Part shown: positions 11,786-37,846 of the stretch, piece after piece | Layout: every line of letters starts with the position of its first letter | Position numbering within the stretch: position 1 is the first letter of the stretch | From: Verrucomicrobiia bacterium | GTDB taxonomy: Bacteria; Omnitrophota; Omnitrophia; Omnitrophales; Aquincolibacteriaceae | Length of the DNA stretch: 64,000 nucleotides | Direction: 5' to 3' | NCBI GenBank assembly: GCA_035495615.1 | Contig: DATJFP010000047.1 | Location: 4,106-68,105 of the forward strand | Position numbers and translations under genes: made by a program | Notes under the pieces: model-generated | The model's input: the letters and a program-made list of their open reading frames with translations, nothing else | Databases searched by the model: none | What the model was told of the DNA's origin: nothing

Positions 11786-11789
<4 letters not shown>
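10305..11789 (+). CDS. atpA: F1 ATPase alpha subunit (494 aa)
   Basis: Non-catalytic Walker A GDQMTGKTS. Long colinear similarity to F1 alpha (IDAAFPLAKGQRQLIIGD, YVAFDDLGKHAWAYRQLSLLLQRSPGREAYPGDIFYIHSQLLERA). Start overlaps the b/delta stop. Confidence 0.85.
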
Positions 11790-14540
<2,751 letters not shown>

Positions 14541-16247: not shown

Positions 16248-17458
16248 TGCCTCAGTTTCGATTCCTCGCCAAAGTGAACCCGACGCAGACCGTTGAAGAT
16301 GTCTTGGAAATGGAAAGCAGAGAGGCTGTGCTGCAGTATCTTTCCAAGATGGGATACACGCCGCTGAAGGTCATCCAGATTCAATCTGCGGCGCCCGCCG
16401 CGGGCAAGATCAGCGGCCGCGCGGTTTCTTTCCATCATCTCCAGTCCTTTACGCGTCAATTTGCGAGTCTCATCCGGTCGCAGACGCCGGTCTTGAGAGC
16501 GCTCCGCGTCCTGGAAGAGCAGGCGGAAAGCCCGCGCCTGAAAGCGATCCTCAACGCCGTGCTCGATAACATGGAGCGCAACGGCGCGACGCTGTCCGAA
16601 GCCTTGCGCTGTTTCCCGGAAACCTTTCCGGCCGATTACGTGAACCTCATCAATGCCGGAGAGCTGGGCGGCGCCATAGAAGAGATCCTGGACAAGCTGG
16701 CCGAGAAAATGGACCGCGAAGCCGCGCTGCGTTCGAAGCTGCAGAGCGCTGTCGTTTACCCCGCGTTTGTCGGCGTGATGGGCGCCGTCACGGTGGTCGT
16801 CCTTCTTGTTTTTGTGATGCCGCGCATCCTCGTCATGCTGAAACGGCTGCACGTCGAATTGCCCTGGCCCACGAGGGCGCTCATAGCGCTGACGCATATT
16901 TTGACGCATCCCTTTTTCTGGGCCGGAGCCGCGGCACTTGCCATCCTCGGGATCATCGTCTGGAAGGGCCTGTCCTCGCAGGCCGGCGAGCTCTTCGACA
17001 AACTCTTGCTGCGCGTGCCGGTGGCGGGCCGAGTGGCTCTCTATACGGAAATGGTGAGATTCTGCCGTTCACTGGGACTGCTCATGGACCACGGCGTCCT
17101 GATCATCCAGGCGCTGGAGGCCAGCATCGCGGTGGTGGGGAATCGCTGGATCCGCAGCCAGCTGGAGACGCTGCCGAAAATGGTCAGGGAAGGGCATCTG
17201 CTGACGGAAGGGATGAAAAAACTCCCTCTGGCTTCGCCGTATCTGCTCCAGACCCTGAAGGTCGGGGAAGAGGGCGGGCGGATGCCGGAAGGATTGCTGG
17301 AGGCCGCGAATTTTTTGGAAAGGGAGGCGGTAAGCCGCATGCAGGTGCTGGCGTCGCTTCTGGAACCGGTCATGATTCTCGCGGTGGGAGCGGTCGTCGG
17401 ATTCATCGTCATGGCCACGATGCTTCCGATCTTCGAAATCAGCAGCTCGATCCGGTGA
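16247..17458 (+). CDS. gspF: Inner-membrane platform protein GspF/PilC family (403 aa)
   Basis: TGATG overlap with gspE. Duplicated GspF-type domains, each followed by TM segments. N-terminal FRFLAKVNP...LSKMGYTPLKV motif. Confidence 0.85.
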   Translation: MPQFRFLAKVNPTQTVEDVLEMESREAVLQYLSKMGYTPLKVIQIQSAAPAAGKISGRAVSFHHLQSFTRQFASLIRSQTPVLRALRVLEEQAESPRLKAILNAVLDNMERNGATLSEALRCFPETFPADYVNLINAGELGGAIEEILDKLAEKMDREAALRSKLQSAVVYPAFVGVMGAVTVVVLLVFVMPRILVMLKRLHVELPWPTRALIALTHILTHPFFWAGAAALAILGIIVWKGLSSQAGELFDKLLLRVPVAGRVALYTEMVRFCRSLGLLMDHGVLIIQALEASIAVVGNRWIRSQLETLPKMVREGHLLTEGMKKLPLASPYLLQTLKVGEEGGRMPEGLLEAANFLEREAVSRMQVLASLLEPVMILAVGAVVGFIVMATMLPIFEISSSIR

Positions 17459-17510
17459 TGGAGACAGAAAAGAACCAGGGTAAAGTCGAAGGTAAGCAGA
17501 AAGGAATATT

Positions 17511-17975
17511 ATGGAACCGCGAAAAAAAACGGCCGCATTTTTTGAAAGCCAAAGAGGTTTTACGCTCATCGAACTCATGATCGTGATCATCATCATCGGA
17601 GCTCTCGCGGCCCTTGCCGTGCCCAGGCTGGCGGGACGGACCGAGGCGGCAAGGCAAACGGCGGCCGAGGCGGACATTAAGGGAAATATTGCGCTCGCCC
17701 TCCGGCTGTATGAAGTCGACAACGGCCGGTATCCGAGCACCGAGCAGGGGCTCCATGCGCTGCTGGAAAAGCCCTCCTCTTCTCCGGTGCCGGCGAATTG
17801 GAAAGGCCCTTATCTTGAAGAGCTGCCGATGGACCCCTGGGGCAAACCTTACGATTATAAATATCCCAGCACGCATCCCCCGCGGGATTTTGACCTGGCT
17901 TCGCTAGGGCCGGACGGGGTCGCGAGCGATGATGACATCGCAAACTGGCGTCAGGCCGAGGCGTCGAAAACGTGA
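17511..17975 (+). CDS. gspG: Major pseudopilin/pilin, GspG-like (prepilin-type N-terminal signal)
   Basis: Leader then G|FTLIELMIVIIIIGALAALAVP (class III signal, Glu+5). 154 aa. Conserved GspG-like globular part (YEVDNGRYPSTEQGLHAL, DPWGKPY). Confidence 0.8.
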   Translation: MEPRKKTAAFFESQRGFTLIELMIVIIIIGALAALAVPRLAGRTEAARQTAAEADIKGNIALALRLYEVDNGRYPSTEQGLHALLEKPSSSPVPANWKGPYLEELPMDPWGKPYDYKYPSTHPPRDFDLASLGPDGVASDDDIANWRQAEASKT

Positions 17976-18421
17976 TGCCCCGGGCGGGCCGGAAAAAAGG
18001 ATGGCTGAACTGCCGGGGGATGACGCTCATCGAAGTTCTGGTCAGCCTCGTCATTCTTTCCACGGCCACGGTTTTCGTGCTCGGAGCCCTTGTCAAGGCC
18101 GCCGAAGTCCAGAGGGTGCAGGAGTGCCGGAGCAAAGCCCAGTTCTTCGCACTCTCGAAATTCGCGGCCCTCGAAATGCGCGTCTTGCCCCCCCAAAAAA
18201 TCGATGAAAAGCAAAAAGGCCGCTTCCAGGACGGCAAGGATGCGTTCGAGTGGGACGTCCAGAACTCGGTCGAAGCCGGGGAAACCCAGGACGAAAACGG
18301 CGAAGCGCTTCAAACCCCGCTTATTCTGAAAAGGGAATTGCATGTTTCTTGGAACCAGGGAGAAGAAAAAAACAGCATGTCGTTTCAGACGCTGTCATGG
18401 TACCGCCCGCCCGCGGAATGA
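17972..18421 (+). CDS. Minor pseudopilin (GspI/GspH-like), 149 aa
   Basis: ATGA overlap with the previous gene. Prepilin signal ..CRG|MTLIEVLVSLVILSTATVFVLG with Glu+5. Confidence 0.6.
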   Translation: MMPRAGRKKGWLNCRGMTLIEVLVSLVILSTATVFVLGALVKAAEVQRVQECRSKAQFFALSKFAALEMRVLPPQKIDEKQKGRFQDGKDAFEWDVQNSVEAGETQDENGEALQTPLILKRELHVSWNQGEEKNSMSFQTLSWYRPPAE

Positions 18422-19025
18422 TGTCCGCCGCGGCGACGCGGGCTTCACGCTCTTCGAGCTTCTGATCGCCATGTCGCTGATGACCTTGGCCCTCATGGCC
18501 GTGGGCAGCGTGCTCATGGGCGGCTCGCGCATCTGGCAGCGCCTCGAATGCGGCGGCTCGCAGGAACAGATGCTGCTCATCGGATTTCAGGAAATGAAGC
18601 GCGACTTGCAGTCTTATCATGCTTTTGTGCCGGTGCCGTTTGACGGGCAATATGAGCGTGTCACGTTCCCGGCGCTCGTGCGAGCCGAAACGGAAGAAGA
18701 AAGTGAACTCCGGGAGCCCGGCCGTCTGGCCTATTTTTTCGACAAGCGGAAAGGGCTGTTGTGCAAATCTTCCACGCCGTACCGCACCCTGCGGCAGACC
18801 CGGCCCGAAGATCAATGCGTCGTCCTGGCGGAGAATGTCGACAAGGTCAGTCTGAAGTATTACCACTATGACGCGGAACAGAAGTCGTTCGGCTGGTCGG
18901 GCACCTGGCGCGATCAAGAACCTCCGCTGTCGGTAGCGGTTGAGGTTGTTTACCATGATTCCTGCACGCTCGAAAAAAGAAAAAAAGGCGTCGAGATCGC
19001 GATTCCTACGGGACCAATCGGGTAG
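18342..19025 (+). CDS. Minor pseudopilin (GspJ-like). Start uncertain: no ATG close to the prepilin motif, and the longest ORF start overlaps the previous gene by 80 nt.
   Basis: Class III signal RRGDAG|FTLFELLIAMSLMTLALMAV. Downstream globular domain. Overlaps the following GspK-like gene. Confidence 0.5.
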   Translation: MFLGTREKKKTACRFRRCHGTARPRNDVRRGDAGFTLFELLIAMSLMTLALMAVGSVLMGGSRIWQRLECGGSQEQMLLIGFQEMKRDLQSYHAFVPVPFDGQYERVTFPALVRAETEEESELREPGRLAYFFDKRKGLLCKSSTPYRTLRQTRPEDQCVVLAENVDKVSLKYYHYDAEQKSFGWSGTWRDQEPPLSVAVEVVYHDSCTLEKRKKGVEIAIPTGPIG

Positions 19026-20004
19026 CGTTCTCATTCTCACCGTATGGGTGACGGCGCTCCTCGGCCTTATGGCCATAGGCTTCGGCGCGGTCTCGCTTTT
19101 TTCCATCAACGCCACGGAGACGCTTCGTTACAGCCTCGAATCGTACGGGGCTGCACGCGCCGGGCTTCCGTACGTCCTTTATCAGCTCGAAAACGACAAG
19201 TCCCCTAAATATGACGGAAGCGCCGACGGCTGGAGCGATAATGAATCGCTTTTCCGCGACCATCCTCTCCAAGGCGGTGTTTTCAGCGTCTATCATGAAG
19301 TCTTGAACGAATATTCCGGACAAACCGAGCGCAAATACGGTATTCTGGATGAAGAAAGCAAGTTAAATGTGAACCGGGCAAAGACCGATATACTTAAAAA
19401 TTTGCTCGTGCTGGCCGCCGGGCTCAAAGAAGAGGACGCGGCCGTTCTCGCGAACAGGATTACCGACTGGCGCGATGACGACACCGAACCCACTTTGCCG
19501 GGAGGCGCCGAGAAATACGACTATCTTTCCATGCGCGGCGCATACGAACCTAAGGACGGAGATTTGCAAAGCATCGAAGAGCTCCTGCTTGTCAAAGGCA
19601 TGACCCCTGAAATTTTTTCCTCCATCCGCCCCTATGTCACCGTTTACGGCGACGGCACCGTCAACGTCAACACCGCGGGCAGCAAGGTGCTTCTCTCGCT
19701 CGGCCTCAGTGAAGCCGCCGTGAACGGCGTGCGTCTTTTCCGCCTCGGGGGAGACGGCGAGGCAGGGACTCAGGACGACGGCATCGTCACGTCCAAGTCC
19801 GCGATCTCCGGCGAATTGGGGACCTACATTCCCATGGAAGACATGAACCGCCTCAACGAGTTGCTTCAGGGAGATCTGCTCGGTGTCAGCTCTTCCACCT
19901 TTTCCTTCACGAGCGAAGGCCGTCTCGAGCACGAGGCCGCGCCCGTGATTATCGATTGCGTCCTCGAGCGGACGGGGGAAATCGTGTCATGGTCGCAAAG
20001 ATAA
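18940..20004 (+). CDS. gspK: Minor pseudopilin GspK-like (354 aa)
   Basis: N-terminal hydrophobic segment GSVLILTVWVTALLGLMAIGFGAV lacks the Glu+5, as in GspK. Size and position (after I/J-like genes) are typical. LNVNRAKTDILKNLL and VNVNTAGSKVLLSLGL repeats resemble GspK helix-hairpin-helix-like motifs. Confidence 0.6.
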   Translation: MRLFTMIPARSKKEKKASRSRFLRDQSGSVLILTVWVTALLGLMAIGFGAVSLFSINATETLRYSLESYGAARAGLPYVLYQLENDKSPKYDGSADGWSDNESLFRDHPLQGGVFSVYHEVLNEYSGQTERKYGILDEESKLNVNRAKTDILKNLLVLAAGLKEEDAAVLANRITDWRDDDTEPTLPGGAEKYDYLSMRGAYEPKDGDLQSIEELLLVKGMTPEIFSSIRPYVTVYGDGTVNVNTAGSKVLLSLGLSEAAVNGVRLFRLGGDGEAGTQDDGIVTSKSAISGELGTYIPMEDMNRLNELLQGDLLGVSSSTFSFTSEGRLEHEAAPVIIDCVLERTGEIVSWSQR

Positions 20005-21494
20005 AAGCGCCTGCGGTTCCGGGTTCGCCGCGCTTCGGCGCGTGGTTCCGCCGTCCGTTAAAGACTTCCCGGTCGCCGCTTGTCGTGCTTTCGATGCACG
20101 GAACTTCCGTCAAGGTCTTGGCGGCCGCCGGGACCCCGGAAAAGCCGCGGATTGCGCTCGCCAAAATTCCTATGCCAAGCGACGGTTCGGAAGAAGAAGC
20201 CGTCACGCAGCTGCGGCAATTTCTTTCCGCTCACGGCATCAAAGAGCCCCGCATCATAATTTCCTGCGCGTCGTCGTTCGTGCGCGCGGCGCAGCTCAAG
20301 CTGCCTTCCACCGACATGAAAGAGCTTCGGACCATGGTGGATCTGGAAGTCGAGAAAAGCAGTCCGGAGGCGAAGGACGAGACCTTGAGTTATTTCTCGC
20401 TTCTGGCTTCGCGCCCCGACGGTTATTCCCAGGTCTTCGTGGTCACCTGCCATGCGGACATCGCGAGAAAAGGCGTGAGCCTTGTCGAACGGCTCGGGGG
20501 CCGGCTGACGCATGTCACGTGCGATCTCGACGGCTTTCTCATCTGGCTCCGGGAAATCAAAAAAGGAAAAAAAGACGCCGACGCGTGGATCATTCTCGTG
20601 GACGTGGACAATGACTGCACGACACTCACGGTCCTGCATAAAAAAAAAGTGATCCTCCACCGATGCCTTTCTTTTGGGGCGCAGGATCCCGCTTGCGAGG
20701 ACAAGCTTTCGCAGGAATTCGAGCGGTCGGTGGCCCTCCTGAAAGAAGAAGAAGGCGAGGTTTCCATTTCGGAGGTTCTTCTGTCCGGCATGGTCCCCGA
20801 ATCCTGCGTTTTTCTTGCCGACAAGACGGGAACACCGCTGCCGGTCCGCGTCGTCCCGGCCTTTCCGGGCGCCGAACTTTCGCAGGAATCTTCTCAGGCC
20901 TTGACGAGCGGTTCCTTCACCGCGCTCGCGGGCTTCATGTCCGGCGTTCCGCAGGGCGATTTGACGCCGCCGGCTTTGCGGATCCGGCGCCGGTTCGAGC
21001 AAAGAATCCGGGCGGGGACGATCCTCATGGGCCAGCTTCTTTTTGCGGCGGTCATTCTCGGGGGCGTCTTCCTCAAGGGGCTTCATGAAAAGACGGGCCA
21101 TGAAAAAGCACTGTTTGCCAAGGTCAAAGCCACCGAAAAAGACGCTAAGGATGTGGAAACTTCGCTTATGATCCTCAAGGAAATCAAAAAGCGGATGAAC
21201 GACCGCGGGAATCTGCTGCAATCCATTCTGGACATGAGCAAGGCGACACCGGCGCCCGTTCAGTGGGAAGCGCTGACCTACACCAAGGGCGAGGGCGTCG
21301 AATTGAAGGGCTTCTCGCAGGAAATGCCCGAAGTCTTCAAGATGGTGACCGAGCTCGAAAAGTCCGGCCTTTTTTTGCAGGCCAAGCCCCAGCACGTGGC
21401 AAAACGCAAAACGGAAAACCAAAGCGACGTCACCGCATTCGAAATCAACGCTCCTTTTTTCCAGGCCGCGGAGGACCATGCGTCTCATTCCTGA
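19956..21494 (+). CDS. GspL-like assembly protein: cytoplasmic PilM/actin-like domain fused to a TM and PilN-like periplasmic domain. True start probably an internal Met near 20095.
   Basis: PilM-like N-terminal pattern (VVLSMHGTSVKVLAAAG ... ELRTMVDLEVEKSSP). TM TILMGQLLFAAVILGGVFL near residue 350. C-terminal PilN-like segment. Confidence 0.6.
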   Translation: MRPRADGGNRVMVAKIKAPAVPGSPRFGAWFRRPLKTSRSPLVVLSMHGTSVKVLAAAGTPEKPRIALAKIPMPSDGSEEEAVTQLRQFLSAHGIKEPRIIISCASSFVRAAQLKLPSTDMKELRTMVDLEVEKSSPEAKDETLSYFSLLASRPDGYSQVFVVTCHADIARKGVSLVERLGGRLTHVTCDLDGFLIWLREIKKGKKDADAWIILVDVDNDCTTLTVLHKKKVILHRCLSFGAQDPACEDKLSQEFERSVALLKEEEGEVSISEVLLSGMVPESCVFLADKTGTPLPVRVVPAFPGAELSQESSQALTSGSFTALAGFMSGVPQGDLTPPALRIRRRFEQRIRAGTILMGQLLFAAVILGGVFLKGLHEKTGHEKALFAKVKATEKDAKDVETSLMILKEIKKRMNDRGNLLQSILDMSKATPAPVQWEALTYTKGEGVELKGFSQEMPEVFKMVTELEKSGLFLQAKPQHVAKRKTENQSDVTAFEINAPFFQAAEDHASHS

Positions 21495-22053
21495 TTTCTC
21501 GAATATCCAGCTCTCGCGGCGCGAGAAAATAATGATCCTGGCGGGAGCCCTTGTGGTGAGCCTCGTGGCCGCGGACAGGCTCGTGTGGTCGCCATGGCGT
21601 CAGTACGGCCGGAAACTCGACAAGAGCCTCTCGGAGCTCTCGATGCAGGCCCAAGGCCAGGAGATGCTGCTTTCGAGGCAGGCGAGCGTGCGCGCGGAGG
21701 TCGCGGCCTATAAAGATTTCATCCATCCGAGCCGTTCTCCTGAGCTGGAAATGGCGGAGTTCTTGAGGGAAATCGAAGAGCTCGGCCGCCAGAGCAATGT
21801 CAGTCTTCCGGAAATTAAGCCTCTTCCCACGAATGCGTCTCAATATTTTACCGAGTTCGGTCTGGAAGTGCGTTTCGAGGCGGGGCTTTTGGACTGGATG
21901 AAATTCGTTTATCAGACGGAATCGTCCCATTCCCTTTTCGTCATCGATAAAGCGTCCGCCGCCCGCGCGGATGCGAACTCGGAAATGCTGAAAGGCTCCA
22001 TGCAGATACGGAAAATGGTCCTCAACGACGATTCGATCGAGGCCTTGAAATGA
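21478..22053 (+). CDS. GspM/PilO-like bitopic protein (191 aa)
   Basis: N-terminal TM IMILAGALVVSLVAADRLVW, then a periplasmic coiled-coil plus alpha/beta region. Overlaps both neighbours. Confidence 0.5.
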   Translation: MRLIPDFSNIQLSRREKIMILAGALVVSLVAADRLVWSPWRQYGRKLDKSLSELSMQAQGQEMLLSRQASVRAEVAAYKDFIHPSRSPELEMAEFLREIEELGRQSNVSLPEIKPLPTNASQYFTEFGLEVRFEAGLLDWMKFVYQTESSHSLFVIDKASAARADANSEMLKGSMQIRKMVLNDDSIEALK

Positions 22054-22409
22054 CGGCGCGCGCGCTTGGCGTCCTGGCCGTGGCGGCGGCTTTTCTGTGT
22101 TCGCCGCGGGCCCTCTCCGCGGAGGAAAAAAGCCCTCACGATTACGTGACGGTCAAATCGCAGGAAGGCCTTACCTTCAACGTGCCGGAAGACTGGCCGG
22201 TCGAAAAAAGAGGCAGCACCGTCGGACCTGTGCCGGTCGAGGAATATCTGGCCATGAAGTTTGCGAAGGTGAACGAGAGAATCGACGCGCTTGAAAAGCG
22301 GGTATCCCAACTTGAGTCCGAAGAAGAGAAACGCAAACATGCGGCGCGGCAAAAAATGCTCGGCAGCGAACCTGCCGTAGAAAAATCATCCGAGGAAGAA
22401 AAATCATGA
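22050..22409 (+). CDS. Small secreted protein (119 aa), possibly PilP-like accessory
   Basis: Signal peptide MTARALGVLAVAAAFLCSPRALSA. ATGA overlaps on both sides. Confidence 0.45.
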   Translation: MTARALGVLAVAAAFLCSPRALSAEEKSPHDYVTVKSQEGLTFNVPEDWPVEKRGSTVGPVPVEEYLAMKFAKVNERIDALEKRVSQLESEEEKRKHAARQKMLGSEPAVEKSSEEEKS

Positions 22410-23470
22410 GCCGAAAACTCTTTCCTGAAGCGGCGGGAGCCGTCTGTCTTGCTCTCCTTGTTTTCCTGGGCCCGGCCTGTTCGCGCCGGAAACCTCCCGC
22501 GGATACAGGCGCGGGGAAAAGCGCTGCGGAAAGCCAGCGCAGCGCGGCCGCGCCGGACGCCGACAAGGAAATCGCCGGCGAAATTTTCGGGGTCCCCGTT
22601 CCCGCCGGAAATTACTATTTTGCCAAGCAGGTGCACAGCACTTTCCAGGGGCCCGGGGAGAAGGAAATGACCCCGGAGCAGAAAGAAAAATTTATCTGGC
22701 ACAACCTCATTCTTCATTATGAGGCAACCCGGCGCGGCATCGCGCCCACAGCCGATGAAATGAAGCAGTGGATCGACAGCGTTTTCCAGGCGCTCGACCT
22801 GAAAATAAAACCTTCCGAAAATTCGGCCGCGTATAAAAGCTGGGTTGAAACGACGTTGAAATCGAACGTCGAATTTTTTGAAAACCAAATGCGTTATCTG
22901 GCGACGATCGAGAAGCTGCGGCGGGAAGTCGTTCCGGACATGACCGTGCAAGTCAGCGACGAAGAGATCCGGAAAGAATTCTCGAACGTGGAAAACCACG
23001 TCGGAGGGGAATACCTCCTCTTCGATAAGAAGGAAGAGGCGCAGGCTTTTTACGAAGCGCACCAGTCTGAAAAGGAATGGGAAGCCTATAAGAAAGATCA
23101 TGCGGACGCGATCCGGCCTTTTGCCCTCATCACCGAGCAGGCCATCATCGATTTGTGGGGCGTGCCTCAGGAGCAGATCGACGCTTTCCACGCATTGCCG
23201 CTGGGAACGGTCGGGGAACCGCTGCCTTTCGGGCAAAAGTGGGGTGTTTTCCGTCTTTTGCAAAAACGCGAGGCCGACCCGTCCAAGCTCGACGACAAAC
23301 TGAAGGAAGATTACCGCAAGCGCGTTGAAATGAAAAAGAAGTTTGCGGCGCGCGACGAATGGCTCGAGCACATCGACGAACGCGCGAATCTGAAAGTTTA
23401 TCTGAAACCCCAGGCCGCTGAGGCGGCGCAAAACTCCGCTGCCGCACCTTCCGCGGGAACCGCCTCCTGA
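22406..23470 (+). CDS. Putative lipoprotein, possibly chaperone-like (354 aa)
   Basis: Signal plus lipobox LVFLGPAC|S. Charged helical protein. Last gene of the string before a 58-75-nt gap. Confidence 0.5.
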   Translation: MSRKLFPEAAGAVCLALLVFLGPACSRRKPPADTGAGKSAAESQRSAAAPDADKEIAGEIFGVPVPAGNYYFAKQVHSTFQGPGEKEMTPEQKEKFIWHNLILHYEATRRGIAPTADEMKQWIDSVFQALDLKIKPSENSAAYKSWVETTLKSNVEFFENQMRYLATIEKLRREVVPDMTVQVSDEEIRKEFSNVENHVGGEYLLFDKKEEAQAFYEAHQSEKEWEAYKKDHADAIRPFALITEQAIIDLWGVPQEQIDAFHALPLGTVGEPLPFGQKWGVFRLLQKREADPSKLDDKLKEDYRKRVEMKKKFAARDEWLEHIDERANLKVYLKPQAAEAAQNSAAAPSAGTAS

Positions 23471-31206: not shown

Positions 31207-31228
31207 GGCCCGCCTTCATCACTCTTAT

Positions 31229-31302
31229 GCCCCGATAGCTCAATTGGATAGAGCGGCGCCGTCCTAAGGCGAAGGTTGCATGTTCGATTCATGCTCGGGG
31301 CA
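31229..31302 (+). tRNA. tRNA-Arg (anticodon CCT), CCA not encoded
   Basis: Folded manually. Acceptor GCCCCGA/TCGGGGC. D arm GCTC-AATTGGATA-GAGC. Anticodon stem GCGCC/GGCGA with loop GTCCTAA (U33 then CCT). Variable loop AGGTT. T arm GCATG-TTCGATT-CATGC. Discriminator A. Confidence 0.85.
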
Positions 31303-31315
31303 TAAAATTTTTACC

Positions 31316-31331
31316 GCTCCGAGCATGAATC
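31316..31331. repeat. Inverted copy (15/16 nt) of the tRNA-Arg 3' end (T-arm/acceptor, 31286-31301) located 14 nt downstream of the tRNA
   Basis: gctccgagcatgaatc is the reverse complement of gattcatgctcggggc with one mismatch. Together they can form a long hairpin with an AT-rich loop. Confidence 0.6.
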
Positions 31332-31492
31332 AATCGCCGCGCGACGAAGAAGTCGCGCATGCTTGGCGATGGGCGCGAGACGGTGAGCGCCCTTAATTCA
31401 GATGCTTTTAACAATGCGCGACGTCTAGGAGCGCCGAGCTCCTTGCCGAGGACGGGCGGTCACCGGAGGCGAGCGAAGCGAGCCGCAGGGAC

Positions 31493-31502
31493 CGATTCAT
31501 GC
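31493..31502. repeat. Direct 10-nt copy (cgattcatgc) of the tRNA-Arg T-arm segment 31285-31294, about 200 nt downstream
   Basis: Exact 10-mer match inside a low-GC non-coding spacer. An att-like direct repeat is possible, but no integrase is present. Confidence 0.4.
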
Positions 31503-31733
31503 GGTGGTGAAGCTCGCAGAAATTTCTAGCATAGATTGTTTGTGGGTGTAACGCTATTTGCAGTAATGACTTGCGACCATAACGTCCACTTCAACCATTC
31601 CCACCTCACCCAAAATTCCTACTTAAGATATCCCCGGAGATGCCGTTTTTCAGGATACGGCGTGTCTGCCGCAGGCCTCTGTTGGGCCAAAGCTCACATT
31701 CATAACGTCACGGTAAAACCGAAGGCCATACGC

Positions 31734-31762
31734 TTGACTCATTTCGGGCAAAATGTTAATTT
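31734..31762 (+). promoter_or_regulatory. Sigma-70-like promoter for the giant coiled-coil gene: -35 TTGACT, 17-bp spacer (31740-31756) containing the upstream TG, -10 TAATTT (31757-31762)
   Basis: TTGACT at 31734-31739. TGtTAATTT at 31754-31762. AGGGAG RBS at 31779-31784 before GTG 31793. Confidence 0.5.
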
Positions 31763-31792
31763 AACGAGTCTCACGTCCAGGGAGACCTCCCG

Positions 31793-34700
31793 GTGAAGCG
31801 CCCTAAGCGTTCATCAAATCTACCGGTCTTCTGGCGACCTTCTTCTCCTTCAATGAGAAAAAAGTCTTCGGCCCTTTTTCTAGCCACTCTTGTTACGCTC
31901 CAAGCGACCGTGCCTTCGTATGTCTACGCGCAGAACGTCTCTCCCAAAATGGACGTGGTGCGCGACATCAACGATTTCGAAGAAGCCCGCCGCGAATGGG
32001 AACGCCAGCGCGATGCCCAGCTCGAAGAGCTGCGCGAAAAGCAGGCGCGCATCGAAGAAATTAAACAGGCTCTCCTCGCCAAGATCGTCGAACTCAAGCA
32101 GGAAAAAAAGCAATGGGAAGGCGAGAAGCAGCGCATCGCCCAGCAGCCCGCCGCTTCCGGCGATAATCAGAAAGCCCTCCAGGAAATCCAGGCCCAGCGC
32201 CAGCAGATCGAGCATGAAAAGCTGATTCTCGAAAAAGCCAAAAAGAGCCTTGCCGACGAACGCCGCAGATTCGAAGAACAGTCTGCGCAAAAAGAAATGG
32301 CCGCGCAATCCGGTGTTTCCGAGCGCTCGCAGGAATTCGAAAGCAAAATCAGCCAGCTCTCCCGTTCGCTCGAAGAAAAGCAGGACGCGCTTCTCAAGGC
32401 CAAACAGGAACAGGTGGACCTGCAGCGGCGTCTCACGGAAAAAGAATCCGAACGCAGCGAAAAGGTCAAGAATTGGACGGACGAGCTTTCCAAGAAAGAA
32501 GCCGCGCTGCGTCAGCAGGCTCAGGAAATCCTGACCGAGCGTCAGGCCCTCGACAGCGAAAAGACGGAATTGATGAAGCAGAAGGTCGCGCTTGAAAAGC
32601 AGGCGCAGGTTACCTTGGGCGCTCCCGGCAAGTCCGCGGATTTGGAGACGCGCGAAAAAGAGCTCGATCAGCAGTTCGCGGAGCTCAACCGGCAAAAGCA
32701 AAAAATCGAGCAGGAACAGGAAGTCGTAAGGGCCACACTGCAGGAACGCCAGGCCGATCAGGAACAATCGCTCAAAGAACTCCAGCGCCGGGAACAGATT
32801 GTGGCCACTCAGATCAAGACTCTGGAAGCCAAGAGCGCGGAACTGGACAAGCGCGAACAAGCGCTGCTTTCGCGGGAAGCCCAGGCCCCCAAGGCCGGCA
32901 CCGTGAACCAGACGGCCGCGGTGCAGAAGATGGTGGCCGAACTCGTCGGGACCAAAGAAGACGTCGAACGCCAGAAGCAGGAATTCCTGCGTGAAAAGGC
33001 GCTTTGGGAAGCCAACAAAAAAAGAGAGCAGGACAAGCTCGCCTTTGCCGCGCAGCAGGCGAACGAACAATCTCTGGCCGATCAGGAAAGACAGCGCGCC
33101 GAAGTGAGCCGCAAGGCCGCGGAGCTCGAAGCCAAGATCCGCCAGTACGAAGACAAGACCGTCGAGCTGGAGCAAAGCGAGACCGATCTCAAGCAGAAAT
33201 GGCAGGATTTCCAGAACCGTCAAGCCGAGATCGAAAGCAAGGGTATCCAGGTCACTTCGAAAGAAAGCGCCATGCAGCAGACGCTCTCGCAGCTGGTCAC
33301 CTCGAAGGAAAAACTGGCCGAGGAGCAGCAAGCCTTCGAAAAAGACCGCGCGGCCTGGGAAGACAAGCGCAAGCAGGTCCAGGCTGAGCTGGCCAACCAG
33401 ATTGCCGCCTATAAAAAGGAACGCACGGACGCCGAGGCCGATCTCGACCGCCGGCAGAAAGAACTGGAACAGAACGTCGCGGCCTTCGACACCAAAGCGC
33501 AGGCTCTTCGCGACGAGGAAGCCAAGCTGACGGCTTCGAAGACCGAGCTGGACCAAAAGACGACGGCCCTGGAAACGGACAAGGCCAAGCTGAAGGAAAC
33601 CGAAGACAAGGTCCAGCAGAAGATCGTGCAGCTGATCGAGACCAAGCAGAAGCTCGATGCGGACGCCGCCAACCTCGCGTCCGAAAAAACGAAGCTGGAC
33701 TCAGCACAGCAGGCGCTGGCTGCGGAAAAACAGAGCTGGGAAACTGAACAAAGCCAAAAATCGGCGGCGCTCGATAAGCTCAAACTGGATTTCGACAAGC
33801 GCGACGCCGAACTCCGCACGGGCAAAGAAAAACTCACCCAGGTCGTCACCGTCCTCAAGCAGAAAGAAGCCGACCTCTCGGCCCGCCAACAGGACTTCGC
33901 GGCCCAGAAAGTGGAATACGAAAAGGCCAAGATCGCCTGGGAAACCGAAAAGCAAAAAGTGCTCCAGAACCTGGACCTGCAAAAGCAGAACCTGGCCTCC
34001 GAAGCGCAGCAGAAAAATCTTGCGATCGAAACGCAGCGTGAAGGCCTGGAACGCATGTCCAAAGAACTGGCCGATCAGAAGACGAAGCTCGAGAGCTATC
34101 AGAAAGAACTCGACTCGCGCAAAGCGGCTCTGGCGCAAAGCCAGACCGATCTTGCGGCCAAGGAAGACGTGCTCAAGCAGAAGATCGGTGACTTCGGCAA
34201 GATCAAGGTCGAGTTCACTGACGAAAAAACCAAGTGGGAAACCGAGCGCGCGGCCAAGGATCAGGAACTGGCAAACCGCGCCCAGGACCTGGATGCCGCT
34301 GCGCGCGAGAAGGCCGACCAGCTCGAACGCGAACGCGCGGACATGACGGCCAAGATGGACCAGGAAAAAGCCGCGATGCAACAGGGCTTGCAGCAGGAAA
34401 AGGCGACGATGGCCCAGAACCTTCAGAAGGAAAAGGCCGGGATCGCCAAGGACCTCGCGGAGCTCGACAAGCGCAAGGGCATTCTGCTCGAGCTGGACAA
34501 GCAGCTTCAGACGCGCAAGCTCGACCTGGACAAGCGCGAGCAGGCTATCGCCGATGAGCGCAAGCAGCTCGAGGCCGAAAAGAATGCCCAGCAGCAGAAG
34601 ACTGCGGAATCGACTCAGCGAGAACAGGATCTGCAGGATGAAGCCGCGCGGCTCGCGGACCAGCAGAAAGCGCTCGATGCGGAAAAGGAAAAGCTGAACG

Positions 34701-37700
34701 CCGACAAGGCCGCGCTCGAAAAGACCTCGCAGGAGCTGCGCGACAAAGACGCGGATGTCAGTGACAAGCTCCAGCAGCTCGAAAAGCGCAAGGACATCCT
34801 GATCGAGCTCGAGGCGCAGGTGGAAGACGGCAATCGCAAGCTCGAAGCCGCTAAAAAAAGCAATTCCGCCGAAGAATCTGCTCTCGCCGAAGAAAAACGC
34901 AAGATTCAAAGCGAACAGGACAGTTTGCGCCAGGACAAGCAGGCGTGGGAAGAACAGCGCGCCACGGCCGAAGGTGTGCTTTCCGAACGCGAGTCCAAAG
35001 TCGAGCGTGTCCGCGAGTCCCTTACCGCCCAGATCGCGAGCCTCAAAGAGGAGCGCGCCCGCTGGGAAGCCGAACGCCAGAAATCTACGGACGAGATCGC
35101 CGCCCGTGAAAGCGAACTTGACCGCATGAAGCTCGATCTCGAAAATAGGACCCGAGAGCTGCAGCAGATGAGCGATTCGTCCGATGCGGCCGCCCAGCAG
35201 GCCAAGGCCGATTATGAACGTCAAAACGCCGCGCTGGAACAAAAGAGAATCGACTTCGAGAAAGATTTCAAGGCCCGCCAGGATGCGCTGAACGCGGAAA
35301 CGGAAAAAGCGCGGGCCGCGCTGGAAAACCAGAAACAGAGCACCGCCGCCGAAATCCAGAGACAGCGGGAAGCCCTGGAGGCGGAAAGCCAGACGACACG
35401 GCTCCAGCTCCAGCAGGAACGGACCGAGACTTCCGAAGGCATCCGCAGAGACCAGGAAGCCGCGCAAAAGGAACTCGCGGACGCCCGCGAGCGCCAGCAG
35501 CAGGAGCTGAACGCCAAATCTGCCGCGGTCATGAATGAGCTGGCTCAGGCGCGGCTCAATCAGGAAGCGGCCTTGAAACAGCGTTCAGCGGATATGGAAA
35601 AGCAGCTGGCATCTCTCCGTGCCGTGACCGATGCGGAAATTAAAAGGAAGACCGAAGCGCTCGACGCGGAAGTCGAACGCGTCAATGCCGATCTTGAACG
35701 CAAGAGGCAGGCCTTTGCGGCGCAGCAGGCAGAACTCGACAAGGCCAATGCCGACCTCGCGCAAAAACAGGTCGAACTGCACGATGCGCAGGCCAAACTC
35801 GCCGAAGGCGAAGAAAATCTCAAGGCGGGCCAAGCTTCTCTCGAACAAGAGAAAAAGCGCCTGGCCGACCTGCAGGAAGCGATTCGCGCTAGCCAGGAGA
35901 AGATCCTGATCGACACAGCGCAGGTCAAAAAGAAGGAAGACGCCTTCCGCGAAAAACAGGCGGAATACGACAGGCTCACCAAGGACAGCACGACGCTTCA
36001 GAGCGAAGCCGTCCAGATCCGCCGGGATCTGGATGCGGAAAAGGCCGAGCTCGAAAACCAGAAGGCCGTCCTTGCCGGGCAGCAAACGGCGCTGCAGGAT
36101 AAAGAAGCCGCTCTTGCCAAACAGAGCGAACAGGTTTCACAGCGCGAGGCCGCTCTCCAGAAGCAGACCGCGGATCTTCGCTCTGAGTACGAGTTGAAAC
36201 AGACCGCCCTTAAAGCGACTTCGCAGCAGGTGGATGAAGAAAAGGCGCGCATCGATCAGTCCTGGAACGAGCTGCACGAAGCCGAAGGCGTGCTCCAGCA
36301 GAAGGTCCAGGAAGTGAAAGTCGAAGAGGCCAAGCTGCACAGCGACCGGGAGCATTACGAAGACCTGCAGCGCTCATTCGAAACGGAAAAGAAAGCGGCC
36401 GAACTGGAATGGGAAAGACAGAAGAGCCAGCAGTCGGTGGATTTGGAAGCGGAAAAAGCGCGCCTCGACAAGATGCGGTCCGTTCTCGACACGGAAACCG
36501 CCAAGCTGCAGGACGAAAAGACCAAGCTGAAGCAGTGGATGGACCAGGTGGAAGAACGCCGGACCACGCTCGCGCAGCGCGAAGCGGAATTTAAAAACAT
36601 GGATGGGGAAATCTTCAAGACTTCGGCGGATCTCAAAGCCGAGAAAACACAGCTCGCCGACGAGCATGCACGGATCGAGGAAGAACGCAACAAGCTTGCG
36701 GAAGACCGCAGCGTTCTCGAAGACGAACGAAAGGCCTACGAACTCGCCCGCAATGCCCAGATGAATTGGCAGACCGAGCATGATAAACGCGAGCAGGCCC
36801 TTGCTGCCGAGGGCAAGGACATTGAACAGCGCAAGCTTGTCCTCGAGGAGAAGGAAAAGGCGTTTAAGGATTTCCAGGCTCAGACCAATGCCCAGGAACT
36901 CAAGCTCCAGGAGCGCGAGCAGGCCGTCAAAATTAAAGAAGACGAGATCCAGCAGCAGGTGGCCGTCATCAGCGAAAAGAACCGCAAGCTCGTCGATGAC
37001 GAGGAAAAATTCGGACTTGTGAAATCGGAATACGAAGCATGGCAGCGCGAGAAGGACGTCGCCGAACATGAGCTCGTGCTCCAGAAACAGAAATATAACG
37101 CCTGGGAAAAGAAGCTGATCGAAAGTGAACGCGCGATTCAGGAGGCGAACAAGCTTATCGCCGACAAGCAGGCAGACCTCGACAGGCGCGCGGGGCTTTT
37201 GGACGAGCGGGAAAGCGCTTTCCAGACCTACCGGGATGAAGTTGCCAGAGCTTCCGAAAAGGTGGAAGCCGCCAAGCAGGACGTCACCTTCCGCCAGCGC
37301 AAAGTCGCCATGCAGTCCGACTCTTTGAAGGAAGAGCTTGCCGAAGTCGAGAAGCTCAAAGCCGCGTATCATTCCGCAAAAAACGTGTCCAAAGGCGAGT
37401 ACATCGAGCCTAAAACTGCGGTGAAAAGTCCTTTCGACGCGTCACGCATCAACGTGAGGCGCGATCTTTTCCGTCAAAAGGACCTGGGATCCGGTGAGGC
37501 GGCCGATACGGTGGTCGCACGCGAATCTGCCGGCGATGATCAGAGCGCGTTGGCATTGTGGGAAGAAAAGCTTAAAAAACGCAATGGAGACCTGCAAAAG
37601 CAGAAGGAAGTCCTGCTCTCGGACCCGGCAGGCACCTTTGACCGGAATAAAAGCTGGTCTTCTTCGCCGTCGTCCAAAACGGACGAGCTGAAAAAGAACG

Positions 37701-37771
37701 CTTCCGACGAGTCTTCTCTCGATGAAGTTCCCTCTCTCTTCAAAGGCCGGGCCTCGGCCTCTCCGACCTGA
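31793..37771 (+). CDS. Giant secreted coiled-coil protein (1,992 aa; E/K/Q/A/L-rich heptads over about 1,850 aa; Ser-rich C-terminal tail). Alternative start ATG 31853.
   Basis: Signal peptide MRKKSSALFLATLVTLQATVPSYVYA|QN (after a 20-aa extension if GTG 31793 is used). The rest is nearly continuous charged heptads (REKQARIEEIKQALLAKIVELKQEKKQWEGEKQ...). No SMC head/hinge or other globular domain is evident. Confidence 0.8.
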   Translation: MKRPKRSSNLPVFWRPSSPSMRKKSSALFLATLVTLQATVPSYVYAQNVSPKMDVVRDINDFEEARREWERQRDAQLEELREKQARIEEIKQALLAKIVELKQEKKQWEGEKQRIAQQPAASGDNQKALQEIQAQRQQIEHEKLILEKAKKSLADERRRFEEQSAQKEMAAQSGVSERSQEFESKISQLSRSLEEKQDALLKAKQEQVDLQRRLTEKESERSEKVKNWTDELSKKEAALRQQAQEILTERQALDSEKTELMKQKVALEKQAQVTLGAPGKSADLETREKELDQQFAELNRQKQKIEQEQEVVRATLQERQADQEQSLKELQRREQIVATQIKTLEAKSAELDKREQALLSREAQAPKAGTVNQTAAVQKMVAELVGTKEDVERQKQEFLREKALWEANKKREQDKLAFAAQQANEQSLADQERQRAEVSRKAAELEAKIRQYEDKTVELEQSETDLKQKWQDFQNRQAEIESKGIQVTSKESAMQQTLSQLVTSKEKLAEEQQAFEKDRAAWEDKRKQVQAELANQIAAYKKERTDAEADLDRRQKELEQNVAAFDTKAQALRDEEAKLTASKTELDQKTTALETDKAKLKETEDKVQQKIVQLIETKQKLDADAANLASEKTKLDSAQQALAAEKQSWETEQSQKSAALDKLKLDFDKRDAELRTGKEKLTQVVTVLKQKEADLSARQQDFAAQKVEYEKAKIAWETEKQKVLQNLDLQKQNLASEAQQKNLAIETQREGLERMSKELADQKTKLESYQKELDSRKAALAQSQTDLAAKEDVLKQKIGDFGKIKVEFTDEKTKWETERAAKDQELANRAQDLDAAAREKADQLERERADMTAKMDQEKAAMQQGLQQEKATMAQNLQKEKAGIAKDLAELDKRKGILLELDKQLQTRKLDLDKREQAIADERKQLEAEKNAQQQKTAESTQREQDLQDEAARLADQQKALDAEKEKLNADKAALEKTSQELRDKDADVSDKLQQLEKRKDILIELEAQVEDGNRKLEAAKKSNSAEESALAEEKRKIQSEQDSLRQDKQAWEEQRATAEGVLSERESKVERVRESLTAQIASLKEERARWEAERQKSTDEIAARESELDRMKLDLENRTRELQQMSDSSDAAAQQAKADYERQNAALEQKRIDFEKDFKARQDALNAETEKARAALENQKQSTAAEIQRQREALEAESQTTRLQLQQERTETSEGIRRDQEAAQKELADARERQQQELNAKSAAVMNELAQARLNQEAALKQRSADMEKQLASLRAVTDAEIKRKTEALDAEVERVNADLERKRQAFAAQQAELDKANADLAQKQVELHDAQAKLAEGEENLKAGQASLEQEKKRLADLQEAIRASQEKILIDTAQVKKKEDAFREKQAEYDRLTKDSTTLQSEAVQIRRDLDAEKAELENQKAVLAGQQTALQDKEAALAKQSEQVSQREAALQKQTADLRSEYELKQTALKATSQQVDEEKARIDQSWNELHEAEGVLQQKVQEVKVEEAKLHSDREHYEDLQRSFETEKKAAELEWERQKSQQSVDLEAEKARLDKMRSVLDTETAKLQDEKTKLKQWMDQVEERRTTLAQREAEFKNMDGEIFKTSADLKAEKTQLADEHARIEEERNKLAEDRSVLEDERKAYELARNAQMNWQTEHDKREQALAAEGKDIEQRKLVLEEKEKAFKDFQAQTNAQELKLQEREQAVKIKEDEIQQQVAVISEKNRKLVDDEEKFGLVKSEYEAWQREKDVAEHELVLQKQKYNAWEKKLIESERAIQEANKLIADKQADLDRRAGLLDERESAFQTYRDEVARASEKVEAAKQDVTFRQRKVAMQSDSLKEELAEVEKLKAAYHSAKNVSKGEYIEPKTAVKSPFDASRINVRRDLFRQKDLGSGEAADTVVARESAGDDQSALALWEEKLKKRNGDLQKQKEVLLSDPAGTFDRNKSWSSSPSSKTDELKKNASDESSLDEVPSLFKGRASASPT

Positions 37772-37846
37772 TTCCGCCGTCCCGGTAAGGGCAGGTGTTT
37801 TTTAGGATAGCCGTGCCTTCCGTCTTTCGCTAAAATACTTCAATCC

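Follow-up and report, generated by a model that had tools for sequence, protein, structure and literature searches.

The open reading frame that follows a tRNA-Arg(CCT) gene in an uncultured Omnitrophota nanobacterium is, judged by its sequence, a real gene, and both sequence periodicity and structural models indicate that its product is a real and very long protein that is coiled coil almost throughout. The sequence family is new, although the general kind is known. We give roughly even chances to the proposal that the protein, with its conserved end modules, is exported by Sec and serves as a structural rod of the envelope specific to this lineage. Comparison with related loci further indicates that the gene is an old, vertically inherited resident of the slot beside the tRNA.

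The gene and its slot after tRNA-Arg(CCT)

The stretch of DNA analysed, here called the window, is 64,000 nucleotides long. Locus comparison indicates that the gene order ppdK, sigma70, PRTase, tRNA-Arg, the slot, 5-FTHF ligase and xseAB is kept across Omnitrophota. In nearly all Omnitrophota loci examined, including those of genomes without the coiled-coil gene, the PRTase and 5-FTHF-ligase genes have a tRNA-Arg(CCT) gene between them, which is best read as the ancestral neighbour of the slot and not as an insertion scar of the coiled-coil gene. Pfam annotation over 118-52958 yields housekeeping, secretion or ATPase genes. A locus of the pilus, T2SS and big-ORF kind occupies 118-23470; the T2SS/T4P-like locus lies 8-17 kb upstream of the coiled-coil gene. 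A 2,683-aa Ig-like protein is encoded 23 kb upstream of the same gene; no functional link between the two found support. The features between the tRNA and the end of the gene are as follows.

31228-31303, + strand: tRNA-Arg(CCT) (ARAGORN; Rfam tRNA, 60.7 bits)
31316-31331, no strand assigned: inverted copy of the tRNA 3' end, pairing with 31286-31301 (repeat search; 16 nt, 94% complementary)
31493-31502, no strand assigned: direct repeat (10 nt) of CGATTCATGC, a T-arm segment of the tRNA at 31285-31294 (repeat search)
31734-31762, + strand: candidate promoter, TTGACT (31734-31739), 17 nt, TGT-TAATTT (TAATTT at 31757-31762), read from the sequence
31780-31785, + strand: Shine-Dalgarno-like GGGAGA, 7-8 nt 5' of GTG 31793, read from the sequence
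31793-37771, + strand: coding sequence of the predicted exported coiled-coil protein, 1,992 codons from GTG (open reading frame list, translation)

An earlier note on this DNA had described a tRNA-Arg(CCT) just 5' of a spacer of about 490 nt, repeats of the tRNA end in that spacer and a 1,992-aa reading frame. ARAGORN, Rfam, the repeat search and translation bear out all of these, with 489 nt separating the tRNA from GTG 31793. The low GC ascribed to the spacer holds for 31503-31792 (0.486) but not for 31304-31502, where it is 0.603 and exceeds the mean for the window (0.584). The low values fall in line with the GC of other short spacers between genes of the window (0.457-0.58), and the dips are no more than the usual composition of intergenic DNA. 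The "strong promoter" of the earlier note fares worse: the TTGACT/TAATTT candidate is a 5/6 + 3/6 match that falls below threshold and was not reported in a promoter scan of the region, and as a promoter it is at most plausible. Initiation at an in-frame ATG (31853) instead of GTG would yield 1,972 aa; the 20 residues from GTG to ATG can be aligned to the N-terminal extension of the orthologue P0003/L004 (SPSDKVK versus SPSMRKK).

Coiled-coil rod, end modules and signal peptide

Signal-peptide and coiled-coil assignments were made with rule-based scripts, conservation across orthologues and AlphaFold2, and gave the following parts of the protein.

31793-31930, + strand: signal peptide, residues 1-46 (GTG numbering), predicted site VYA|Q (n-, h- and c-regions read; conservation)
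31958-32146, + strand: conserved N-terminal module, aa 56-118 (GTG numbering), 63 aa (alignments A1, A2 and A4)
32891-37408, + strand: proline-free heptad rod, 1,506 aa (proline positions, periodicity, register runs)
34847-34870, + strand: AAKKSNSA, 999-1006 (ATG numbering), the only predicted helix break in modelled aa 761-1220 (AlphaFold2 DSSP, pLDDT < 50)
34913-35092, + strand: second, internal copy of the N-terminal module, aa 1041-1100 (GTG numbering) (A4-derived HMM)
37397-37768, + strand: C-terminal module and tail, LFRQK ... LWEEKLKKR ... SW ... EVPSLFKGRASASPT (alignment A3, seven orthologues)

The hydrophobic spectrum of the window protein peaks at 3.51 aa (z=46), with further peaks at 7.0 and 2.33, and heptad periodicity recurs in the long orthologues (z=17-60) and, at z=5-6, in two short ones (P0007 and P0010). 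Register runs extend up to 319 aa with position a rich in L/I/V. Position d is hydrophobic in only about half of the heptads, so that the coiled coil may be weak in parts of the rod or give way to a single alpha-helix. AlphaFold2 models are all-helical (pLDDT 77-78), with rod helices predicted at 763-998 and 1007-1219 (ATG numbering). By its 3.5-residue periodicity and helix-competent sequence the protein falls in the heptad coiled-coil class, a class of structure and not of homology, and the claim that nearly all of it beyond the signal is heptad coiled coil is borne out by periodicity, register runs and models alike. The rod together with the segmented helices that precede it comprises ~1,816 aa, which we estimate at ~270 nm if extended.

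The end modules are conserved while rod identity is only 24-34%. The N-terminal module, with consensus I..FE.....WE..R......L..KEA.LE.IKQ.LL.KI..F...KE.W., scores 77 bits with its HMM and is the best-predicted single helix in the AlphaFold2 models (pLDDT 86-89). Its internal copy scores 34 bits (iE 2e-11), whereas shuffled sequences reach 3.4 bits at most, and L001 and L002 carry the copy at matching positions. In the C-terminal module the invariant columns of A3 include R153 and W182 (A3 segment numbering); the tail that follows it is probably disordered, and its motif EVPSLFKGRASASPT is common to the window protein, L002, L006 and L007.

The N-terminus has the layout of a type I signal, with a basic, K/R-rich n-region (RKK) of 26 residues counted from GTG, the h-region ALFLATLVTL within the expected 10-15 residues, and small residues at -3 and -1 (V-Y-A|Q). 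In the AlphaFold2 model residues 3-19 (ATG numbering) are helical, and the linker after them is of low confidence. An equivalent signal with an A|Q or A|E site is present in every orthologue. Signal and cleavage motif are conserved in ~25 family members, and in nearly all members a small-x-small|Q/E site lies at a conserved distance after the h-region; both the layout and its conservation uphold the signal peptide of the earlier note. By the positive-inside rule the K/R n-region places the rod outside the cytoplasm, with the signal either cleaved or left on.

A Kyte-Doolittle scan finds no second hydrophobic segment in the 1,992-aa protein, including its C-terminus, and there is no Cys in the whole protein. 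A lipoprotein or Lpp-like periplasmic tether is ruled out, as there is no Cys for lipobox +1. The sequence contains no LPXTG motif, a Pfam search of the protein returns no YadA anchor and no SLH domain, and no membrane anchor, beta-barrel, enzymatic domain or ATPase domain was found in it. We rejected an M-protein type, a trimeric autotransporter and an OmpM/Omp-alpha type, since the protein is without LPXTG, YadA barrel, SLH or C-terminal anchor.

Distribution and inheritance of the family

Homologues are very rare. An exhaustive search defined by the N-terminal module gave 10 matches among 1.84 billion representative proteins, one of which (P0008) is a false positive while all true matches belong to the same family, and searches of Pfam, NCBIfam, PHROG and PDB returned no homologue. 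Orthologues at 24-39% identity occupy the same tRNA-Arg/5-FTHF-ligase slot throughout one Omnitrophota clade and share the signal peptide and the N-terminal and C-terminal modules. In a ppdK+sigma tree the gene is restricted to this clade; it is absent from L010, L018 and L029, which are nested within it, and the gene is therefore dispensable. The shortest orthologue has ~217 aa and the longest at least 2,906 aa, with a cluster near 1,850-2,300 aa. Despite 24-34% identity, the window protein and seven complete orthologues all measure ~1,850-2,300 aa, which suggests that length is constrained in this subclade. For L001 and L002, the one closely related pair available, dN is 0.13 with synonymous sites saturated, and by this sequence comparison the pair is under purifying selection.

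The earlier note took the region for horizontally acquired DNA, and a tRNA-Arg-integrated element carrying the gene as cargo would account for several of its features. The spacer holds tRNA-end repeats, the content of the slot after tRNA-Arg differs among relatives, some of which have the tRNA directly followed by the 5-FTHF-ligase gene, and one relative (L081/L082) has an integrase beside the tRNA. The repeats, however, enclose only ~190 bp of spacer and leave the gene outside, and the single direct repeat (10 nt, 31493-31502) is 190 nt away from the tRNA and still upstream of the gene. The inverted copy and 31286-31301 form a 16-bp hairpin in the RNA fold, ~160 nt of GC-rich spacer (0.603; fold z = -4.2) is bracketed by 31316-31331 and 31493-31502, and partial tRNA copies also adjoin tRNA-Arg in L002, L007, L012, L023, L026, L029, L031 and L035. 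In L081/L082 the integrase island is across the tRNA from the coiled-coil gene, which stays core-side, adjoining the 5-FTHF-ligase gene. As the earlier note had said, no integrase is present among the genes annotated within ~20 kb on the upstream and 21 kb on the downstream side, and none was found among the Pfam-annotated window genes (118-52958). The comparison of composition that the note had proposed gives native values: gene GC is 0.576 versus 0.584 for the window, GC3 is 0.71 within a window range of 0.63-0.80, and the synonymous codon distance of 0.086 is among the lowest in the window. Across the clade the GC of the gene varies with that of its host genome (0.43-0.58), and the neighbourhood comparison, in which orthologues with colinear but highly diverged rods share the conserved slot, opposes insertion. 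Vertical residence is indicated by this synteny, by confinement to one clade in the ppdK+sigma tree, by GC that tracks the host and by native codon usage. The horizontal-element reading of the gene is largely refuted, and we give it very little probability.

Proposed envelope role and known systems

As a structural rod of the envelope, the protein would be exported via the Sec pathway with its signal peptide cleaved and would assemble into a homo-oligomeric coiled-coil rod ~270 nm long. Such a rod would be comparable to the diameter of Omnitrophota nanobacteria, ~0.2-0.3 um (PMC10066038). As a structural fibre or scaffold it would remain part of the envelope, and since it bears no further sorting signal, the periplasm would be its default location. 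The conserved end modules may serve as docking or end-to-end assembly sites, and the rod sequence would drift freely, growing and shrinking through internal duplication and deletion. Family members of 217-624 aa exist, so the function cannot strictly need a 270-nm rod. In two genomes only, L005 and L013, an AlgE-like outer-membrane barrel gene directly follows the coiled-coil gene, and in the sister clade the slot is occupied by AlgE-like or FadL outer-membrane barrel genes.

The rod might instead cross the outer membrane, for example via the T2SS/T4P-like machinery, to form a ~270-nm extracellular fibre or tether contacting host, prey or surfaces. This is possible but doubtful. Its length far exceeds the width of any periplasm, and it is fast-evolving and variable in length like surface fibrils, of which the streptococcal M proteins, with their fast evolution and varying length, are an example. 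Omnitrophota have been proposed to live as host-dependent epibionts or as predators and to have conserved pilus, T2SS and big-ORF loci (PMC10066038; 10.1101/2023.11.21.568195), and such a locus lies in the same window. Housekeeping genes, however, separate the T2SS locus, 8-17 kb away, from the coiled-coil gene, and secretion-system loci of this kind are reported as conserved across the phylum (West-Roberts et al., 10.1101/2023.11.21.568195). No outer-membrane anchor, LPXTG, autotransporter barrel or further signal for secretion was identified, and the protein has no adhesive or enzymatic tip domain. It is unlikely that the N-terminal segment remains uncleaved as a signal anchor, leaving the rod tethered to the inner membrane and reaching into the periplasm: the long n-region and several orthologue h-regions averaging above 1.6 (Kyte-Doolittle, 19 residues) would suit an anchor, but the h-region of the window protein is short and averages below that transmembrane threshold, and the cleavage motif is kept at a conserved distance in nearly all members. 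Very improbable in our estimation is a cytoplasmic SMC-like or cytoskeletal coiled coil whose N-terminal hydrophobic stretch is incidental. Weak matches to the coiled-coil arms of SMC, Rad50 and JetC speak for it, yet they involve arms only and fall far under cutoffs (NCBIfam SMC_prok_B, 51 bits versus a cutoff of 567, over arm positions 677-981 only), and every member retains the signal peptide. An SMC/MukB/Rad50 type was rejected: the Walker head halves, hinge and zinc-hook Cys are absent, a Pfam search of the protein returned no SMC_N, AAA or hinge domain, and a test for symmetry of the register breaks, as an arm folded back on itself would show, was not significant (P=0.75). The earlier note had likewise set SMC aside for want of ATPase heads and hinge.

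The structural rod of the envelope that we favour can be set beside several known systems. Very long heptad segments are shared with the arms of SMC, MukB, Rad50 and JetC, which is why SMC and JetC arms are the best NCBIfam and PADLOC matches, whereas the Omnitrophota protein is without heads or hinge, scores less than a tenth of the cutoffs and has an N-terminus predicted to be exported. A phage tape-measure protein was rejected; PHROGs gave no matches and the neighbours are housekeeping genes. The giant proteins described from the same phylum, most of which also have a signal peptide, are multidomain and of 10-147 kaa (West-Roberts et al., 10.1101/2023.11.21.568195; 2026 complete-genome preprint), whereas the protein described here is 2 kaa and coiled coil only. 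Coiled coil is unmentioned in the 2023 and 2026 preprints on these giants, and a locus of the giant-protein class is present in the same window.

M proteins, Staphylothermus tetrabrachion and Thermotoga Omp-alpha are likewise exported, fast-evolving rods whose length varies by internal repeats, but the Omnitrophota protein is without their LPXTG, SLH, C-terminal anchor or protease arms, and its estimated ~270-nm rod is several times longer; a weak PDB profile match to M6 protein reflects coiled-coil character only. Vibrio cholerae CrvA and CrvB are likewise Sec-exported, coiled-coil-containing, non-enzymatic and structural, and are periplasmic in a diderm. CrvA is several-fold smaller than the 1,992-aa protein and includes a domain that is not coiled coil. 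Searches of the Omnitrophota protein against Pfam, NCBIfam and PDB brought up no sequence relationship to CrvA or CrvB. CrvA and CrvB polymerise, forming periskeletal polymers (PMC8938487), whereas assembly of the Omnitrophota protein is a proposal, and curvature of the cell is not known to play a part. Finally, crescentin, FilP, Scy and Ccrp are cytoplasmic and have no signal peptide, in contrast to the conserved and predicted cleavable signal of the Omnitrophota family, which is up to twice the length of Scy. They are likewise long, lineage-specific heptad rods with stutters and no enzymatic domains, and in them, as in the Omnitrophota family, the rod drifts while the end segments are better conserved.

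A long coiled-coil gene beside tRNA-Arg(CCT)

ARAGORN and Rfam agree in finding tRNA-Arg(CCT) at 31228-31303 (forward strand), as the earlier note had read it, and the long open reading frame described beyond its spacer is likewise present: after 489 nt, a GTG at 31793 opens a frame that closes with the stop codon at 37771 and encodes 1,992 aa. Starting instead at the in-frame ATG 31853 would shorten the protein to 1,972 aa. We prefer the GTG start because GGGAGA lies 7-8 nt 5' of it and because the 20 residues that it adds (…SSPSMRKK…) match in alignment the N-terminal extension of the orthologues (…LSPSDKVK…). E and A each account for 14% of the protein's residues, followed by K at 12%, Q at 11% and L at 10%; the protein lacks Cys entirely, and lacks Pro between residues 346 and 1853 (ATG numbering, that is, counted from the alternative start).

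Two reverse-strand ORFs lie within the gene, at 31880-33556 and 33701-35467 (558 and 588 aa); they are most likely by-products of a reading frame rich in GAA, CAG, AAG and GCC and not genes. All 19 of the 19 terminator-like matches in the region also fall on the reverse strand, probably for the same compositional cause. The stop codon is separated from the 5-formyl-THF (5-FTHF) cyclo-ligase gene by 75 bp (37772-37846) in which no forward-strand terminator-like site was found, so the coiled-coil gene possibly shares a transcript with fthf-xseAB-ispA-dxs downstream.

The spacer carries the two copies of the tRNA 3' end that had been reported, a 16-nt inverted copy at 31316-31331 and a 10-nt direct copy at 31493-31502. 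Its supposedly low GC is confined to the distal part (31503-31792, 0.486), the proximal 199 nt being at 0.603, and the low value matches other short intergenic regions of the window (0.457 to 0.58). The strong promoter proposed there (TTGACT, 17 nt, TGT-TAATTT) went unreported by the promoter scan. The segment between the inverted and direct copies (31304-31502, GC 0.60) folds much better than its shuffles (-108 kcal/mol, z=-4.2). Rfam returned only the tRNA for the spacer, with no match for 31304-31502, and no nucleotide conservation of this segment was found in relatives.

Among relatives' loci at the junction of the PRTase and 5-FTHF-ligase genes (L numbers), the strand of tRNA-Arg(CCT) varies while the flanking genes are unmoved.

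Strand of tRNA-Arg(CCT) in the window and in relatives' loci
Forward strand: window, L009, L010, L016, L018, L081
Reverse strand: L001, L002, L005, L006, L007, L012, L013, L015, L083, L084

Partial tRNA copies accompany the tRNA in at least nine genomes, and a tyrosine integrase adjoins it in L081 and L082, where the coiled-coil gene lies on the 5-FTHF-ligase side, outside the integrase island. The tRNA locus is thus a recombination-prone slot, and the strand changes, partial copies and integrases suggest repeated site-specific recombination or inversion at tRNA-Arg(CCT).

Synteny and vertical descent

The gene stands in a run of housekeeping genes, all on the forward strand, in the order glyQ, glyS, ppdK, sigma-70, PRTase, tRNA, coiled-coil gene, 5-formyl-THF cyclo-ligase, xseA, xseB, ispA, dxs and NAD kinase; in a search of 185,579 species genomes, the sigma factor's best matches come from Candidatus Omnitrophota MAGs (63-79% identity). 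The order ppdK-sigma-PRTase-tRNA-Arg(CCT)-slot-5-FTHF ligase-xseA is kept across the Omnitrophota loci fetched. The slot holds the tRNA alone, in a gap of 119-571 bp, in L010, L018, L029, L030, L032, L035, L038, L040, L041 and L044. In 14 loci (L001, L002, L004, L005, L006, L007, L009, L012, L013, L015, L016, L028, L083 and L084) it holds a forward-strand ORF rich in E, K, Q, R, D, A and L, with 24-39% identity to the window protein, reaching 31% over about 2,130 columns (E=0) for L002 and L084.

In a neighbour-joining tree of ppdK and sigma, which is crude and carries no support values, the coiled-coil genes are confined to one clade; three members nested within it have no such gene, most simply through loss. 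Gene GC follows host GC (0.43/0.47, 0.46/0.46, 0.51/0.52 and 0.55/0.54 in relatives, 0.576/0.584 in the window). For L001 and L002, the one pair of closely related orthologues (80% amino acid identity), a dN of 0.13 with saturated synonymous sites indicates purifying selection.

The earlier note had taken this to be horizontally acquired DNA. Its codon usage is native: GC3 is 0.71, within the 0.63-0.80 of other window genes, and the synonymous codon distance to pooled neighbours, 0.086, is among the lowest of 26 genes. Adjacency to a tRNA and dips in GC on either side are what would favour cargo of an island at tRNA-Arg, and they are not by themselves proof of one. Same-slot orthologues within one clade, host-tracking GC and native codon usage make island cargo unlikely, and we conclude that the island interpretation is wrong; the gene is inherited vertically and is core to its clade.

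A heptad rod with conserved ends

The anatomy given to the protein in the earlier note largely stands, and the feature is real: a heptad rod of the exported type, without anchor or domains, whose ends are conserved and whose descent is vertical. In the spectrum of hydrophobic residues, which makes its coiled-coil character evident, the peak lies at 3.51 residues (z=46 vs shuffles) and has companions at 7.0 and 2.33. Tracking the register by script gave 23 segments, the longest run being 319 residues; heptad position a is rich in L, I and V, position d is about half hydrophobic, and all 19 Trp residues (19/19) occupy a or d. AlphaFold2 models residues 1-420 (10-sequence alignment, pLDDT 78) as a signal-peptide helix and, after it, five long helices split by Pro/Gly linkers, and residues 761-1220 (single sequence, pLDDT 77.5) as a pair of helices, about 235 and 213 residues long, with a single break at 999-1006 (ATG numbering). 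Foldseek with both models gave no match at E<=1e-3.

Within the heptad rod, a short hendecad stretch of four successive 11-residue repeats (MDQEKAAMQQG, LQQEKATMAQN, LQKEKAGIAKD and LAELDKRKGIL) spans window positions 34355-34486, or aa 835-878 (ATG numbering). An SMC-like folded-back hairpin was considered and rejected, the mid-point symmetry of register breaks being not significant (P=0.75).

Every family member shares one layout, in which a signal peptide ending in small-x-small|Q/E is followed, 10-25 residues past the cleavage motif, by a module of ~63 residues (I..FE.....WE..R......L..KEA.LE.IKQ.LL.KI..F...KE.W) and then the coiled coil. Conservation extends to the C-terminal 130 residues, where one Arg and one Trp are invariant (…LWE.KL… and …SW…); the tail motif EVPSLFKGRASAS is common to the window protein, L002, L006 and L007.

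A second full copy of the module was found mid-rod with the module HMM at aa 1041-1100 (GTG numbering, counted from 31793), window positions 34913-35092, scoring 34 bits against a shuffled maximum of 3.4 bits. In L001 and L002 the same HMM finds a copy at the corresponding place, and in L005 and L013 a copy ends, C-terminally, an extra upstream coiled-coil gene. Taken together, these copies hint at an origin of the ~2,000-aa form from two ~1,000-aa units, through fusion or duplication. The internal copy sits just after the sole predicted helix break of the modelled aa 761-1220. It was revealed by the module HMM alone; composition-corrected blastp self-comparison gave no match for internal repeats, and Tandem Repeats Finder found no DNA-level tandem repeats in the gene.

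Searches of reference collections with the window protein gave no match above cutoff in Pfam, none in PHROGs and none, for the whole protein, among PDB sequences; profiles of the N- and C-terminal modules drew chance or generic coiled-coil matches only from the PDB. Neither the GTG-start nor the ATG-start version has an identical protein on record. A full-length word-indexed protein search returned 8,000 candidates, none at E<=1e-3, the list probably being swamped by unrelated EK-rich proteins; the same search yielded two fragments with the N-terminal 132 aa and no match with the C-terminal 156 aa. An exhaustive HMMER search of 1.84 billion representative proteins with the N-terminal profile gave 10 matches at E<=1e-3: one is a false positive, and the other nine have the family layout. 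A metagenome scan with the alignment of the N-terminal module (A1) added one more locus of the same architecture.

In every orthologue the only hydrophobic segment is at the N-terminus. The long orthologues have, in addition, very long stretches free of Pro and a 3.5-residue periodicity (z=17-60); the periodicity is weak (z=5-6) in two short orthologues from the exhaustive search, P0007 and P0010. Lengths run from 217-253 aa (L019, L020 and L023) through 530 aa (P0010), 624 aa (P0007) and 1,311 aa (L013) to at least 2,906 aa (L012), a 13-fold spread, with eight lineages clustering at about 1,850-2,300 aa. P0006, a 419-aa fragment from the same search, contains near-identical tandem repeats of ~57 residues (…EKMLAVNPWEGKEKDLARREAELQNQT…), indicating that the rod can grow by duplication, and recently so. 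The length spread, together with the conserved terminal modules, makes the family a natural case for coiled-coil length evolution.

Envelope context, function and comparison with known systems

Genes for AlgE-like or FadL outer-membrane barrels occupy the slot in the sister clade, and barrel genes also adjoin some coiled-coil genes, a modest link to the envelope. The L023 slot contains RhuM/Fic and RmuC genes instead of a barrel.

Outer-membrane barrel genes in relatives' slots
L005 18295-19905: AlgE-like barrel (PF13372), directly 3' of coiled-coil genes
L013 19097-20632: AlgE-like barrel (PF13372), directly 3' of coiled-coil genes
L022 8247-9740: AlgE-like barrel (PF13372), standing alone in the slot
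L025 11612-13006: FadL/TodX barrel
L026 2312-3718: FadL/TodX barrel
L065 12528-13949: FadL/TodX barrel

Upstream in the window, positions 118-23470 correspond to a conserved Omnitrophota 'symbiosis/giant-gene' neighbourhood (PMC10066038; 10.1101/2023.11.21.568195).

Contents of the upstream locus, 118-23470
Start of locus: 2,683-aa Ig-like protein with Kre9/KNH and Reelin-subrepeat matches
9596-14091: F-type ATPase operon
14583-22053: T2SS/T4P-like genes (gspE, gspF, gspG, pseudopilins, gspK, PilM/N, gspM-like)
22406-23470: Rotamase_2 PPIase gene

The function of the coiled-coil protein is one that we infer. Sec would export it, with cleavage predicted at A46|Q47 (GTG numbering), and, with no sorting signal beyond Sec, the periplasm is its default location. 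Conservation of the ends on a drifting rod suggests, by analogy with the rod ends of intermediate filaments, that they are sites of docking or end-to-end assembly. With the textbook rise of 0.1485 nm per residue, a homo-oligomeric rod would measure roughly 270 nm (1,816 x 0.1485 nm). This is close to the Omnitrophota cell diameter of 0.2-0.3 um (PMC10066038), and a periplasmic rod would run along the envelope, not across it.

Several readings of this rod can be weighed. One, which we advance tentatively and hold to be improbable, is that it serves these nanobacteria as a periplasmic or surface 'ruler' or periskeleton that sets or stabilises cell size and envelope geometry, or else the stand-off distance from a host, its terminal modules joining rods end to end or docking to outer-membrane partners. 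The basis for it is that a length of ~270 nm is kept, at about 1,850-2,300 residues, across lineages with 24-34% identity, and matches the cell diameter; if this is true, the protein would be an exported giant resembling a cytoskeletal element, with no described precedent. The main rival, an extracellular contact fibre that crosses the outer membrane, is plausible: the lifestyle of the Omnitrophota and the T2SS/T4P-like locus 8-17 kb upstream speak for it, whereas an anchor, a tip domain and a secretion signal are all absent. Retention in the inner membrane by an uncleaved signal anchor is unlikely, given the shared small-x-small|Q/E motif. A cytoplasmic SMC-like protein is also unlikely; NCBIfam and PADLOC gave sub-threshold matches only, to SMC and JetC arms, the PADLOC JetC match being weak, and ATPase heads and hinge are absent, as are the other family-defining features tested (lipobox, LPXTG, SLH, autotransporter barrel and PHROG tape-measure membership).

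The Omnitrophota are uncultured, ultra-small and probably host-dependent, with an envelope biology about which essentially nothing is known. A rod that is conserved, under selection, predicted to be exported by Sec and about equal in length to the width of the cell is a concrete candidate for an envelope scaffold or a contact fibre. The Omnitrophota literature searched does not mention such a coiled-coil protein, and the word 'coiled' is absent from two Omnitrophota 'giant protein' preprints, so the family is apparently undescribed in them.

In mode of action the protein comes closest to bacterial non-enzymatic coiled-coil structural proteins, among them the cytoplasmic intermediate-filament-like Ccrp proteins and the periplasmic CrvA and CrvB of Vibrio, which form 'periskeletal' polymers (PMC8938487). 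M protein, tetrabrachion and Omp-alpha are comparable as exported fibrillar coiled coils. The protein is a member of none of these families. The general kind is known, the phylum-restricted sequence family is new, and its combination of Sec export, lack of an anchor, ~2,000 residues and extremely variable length is unusual.
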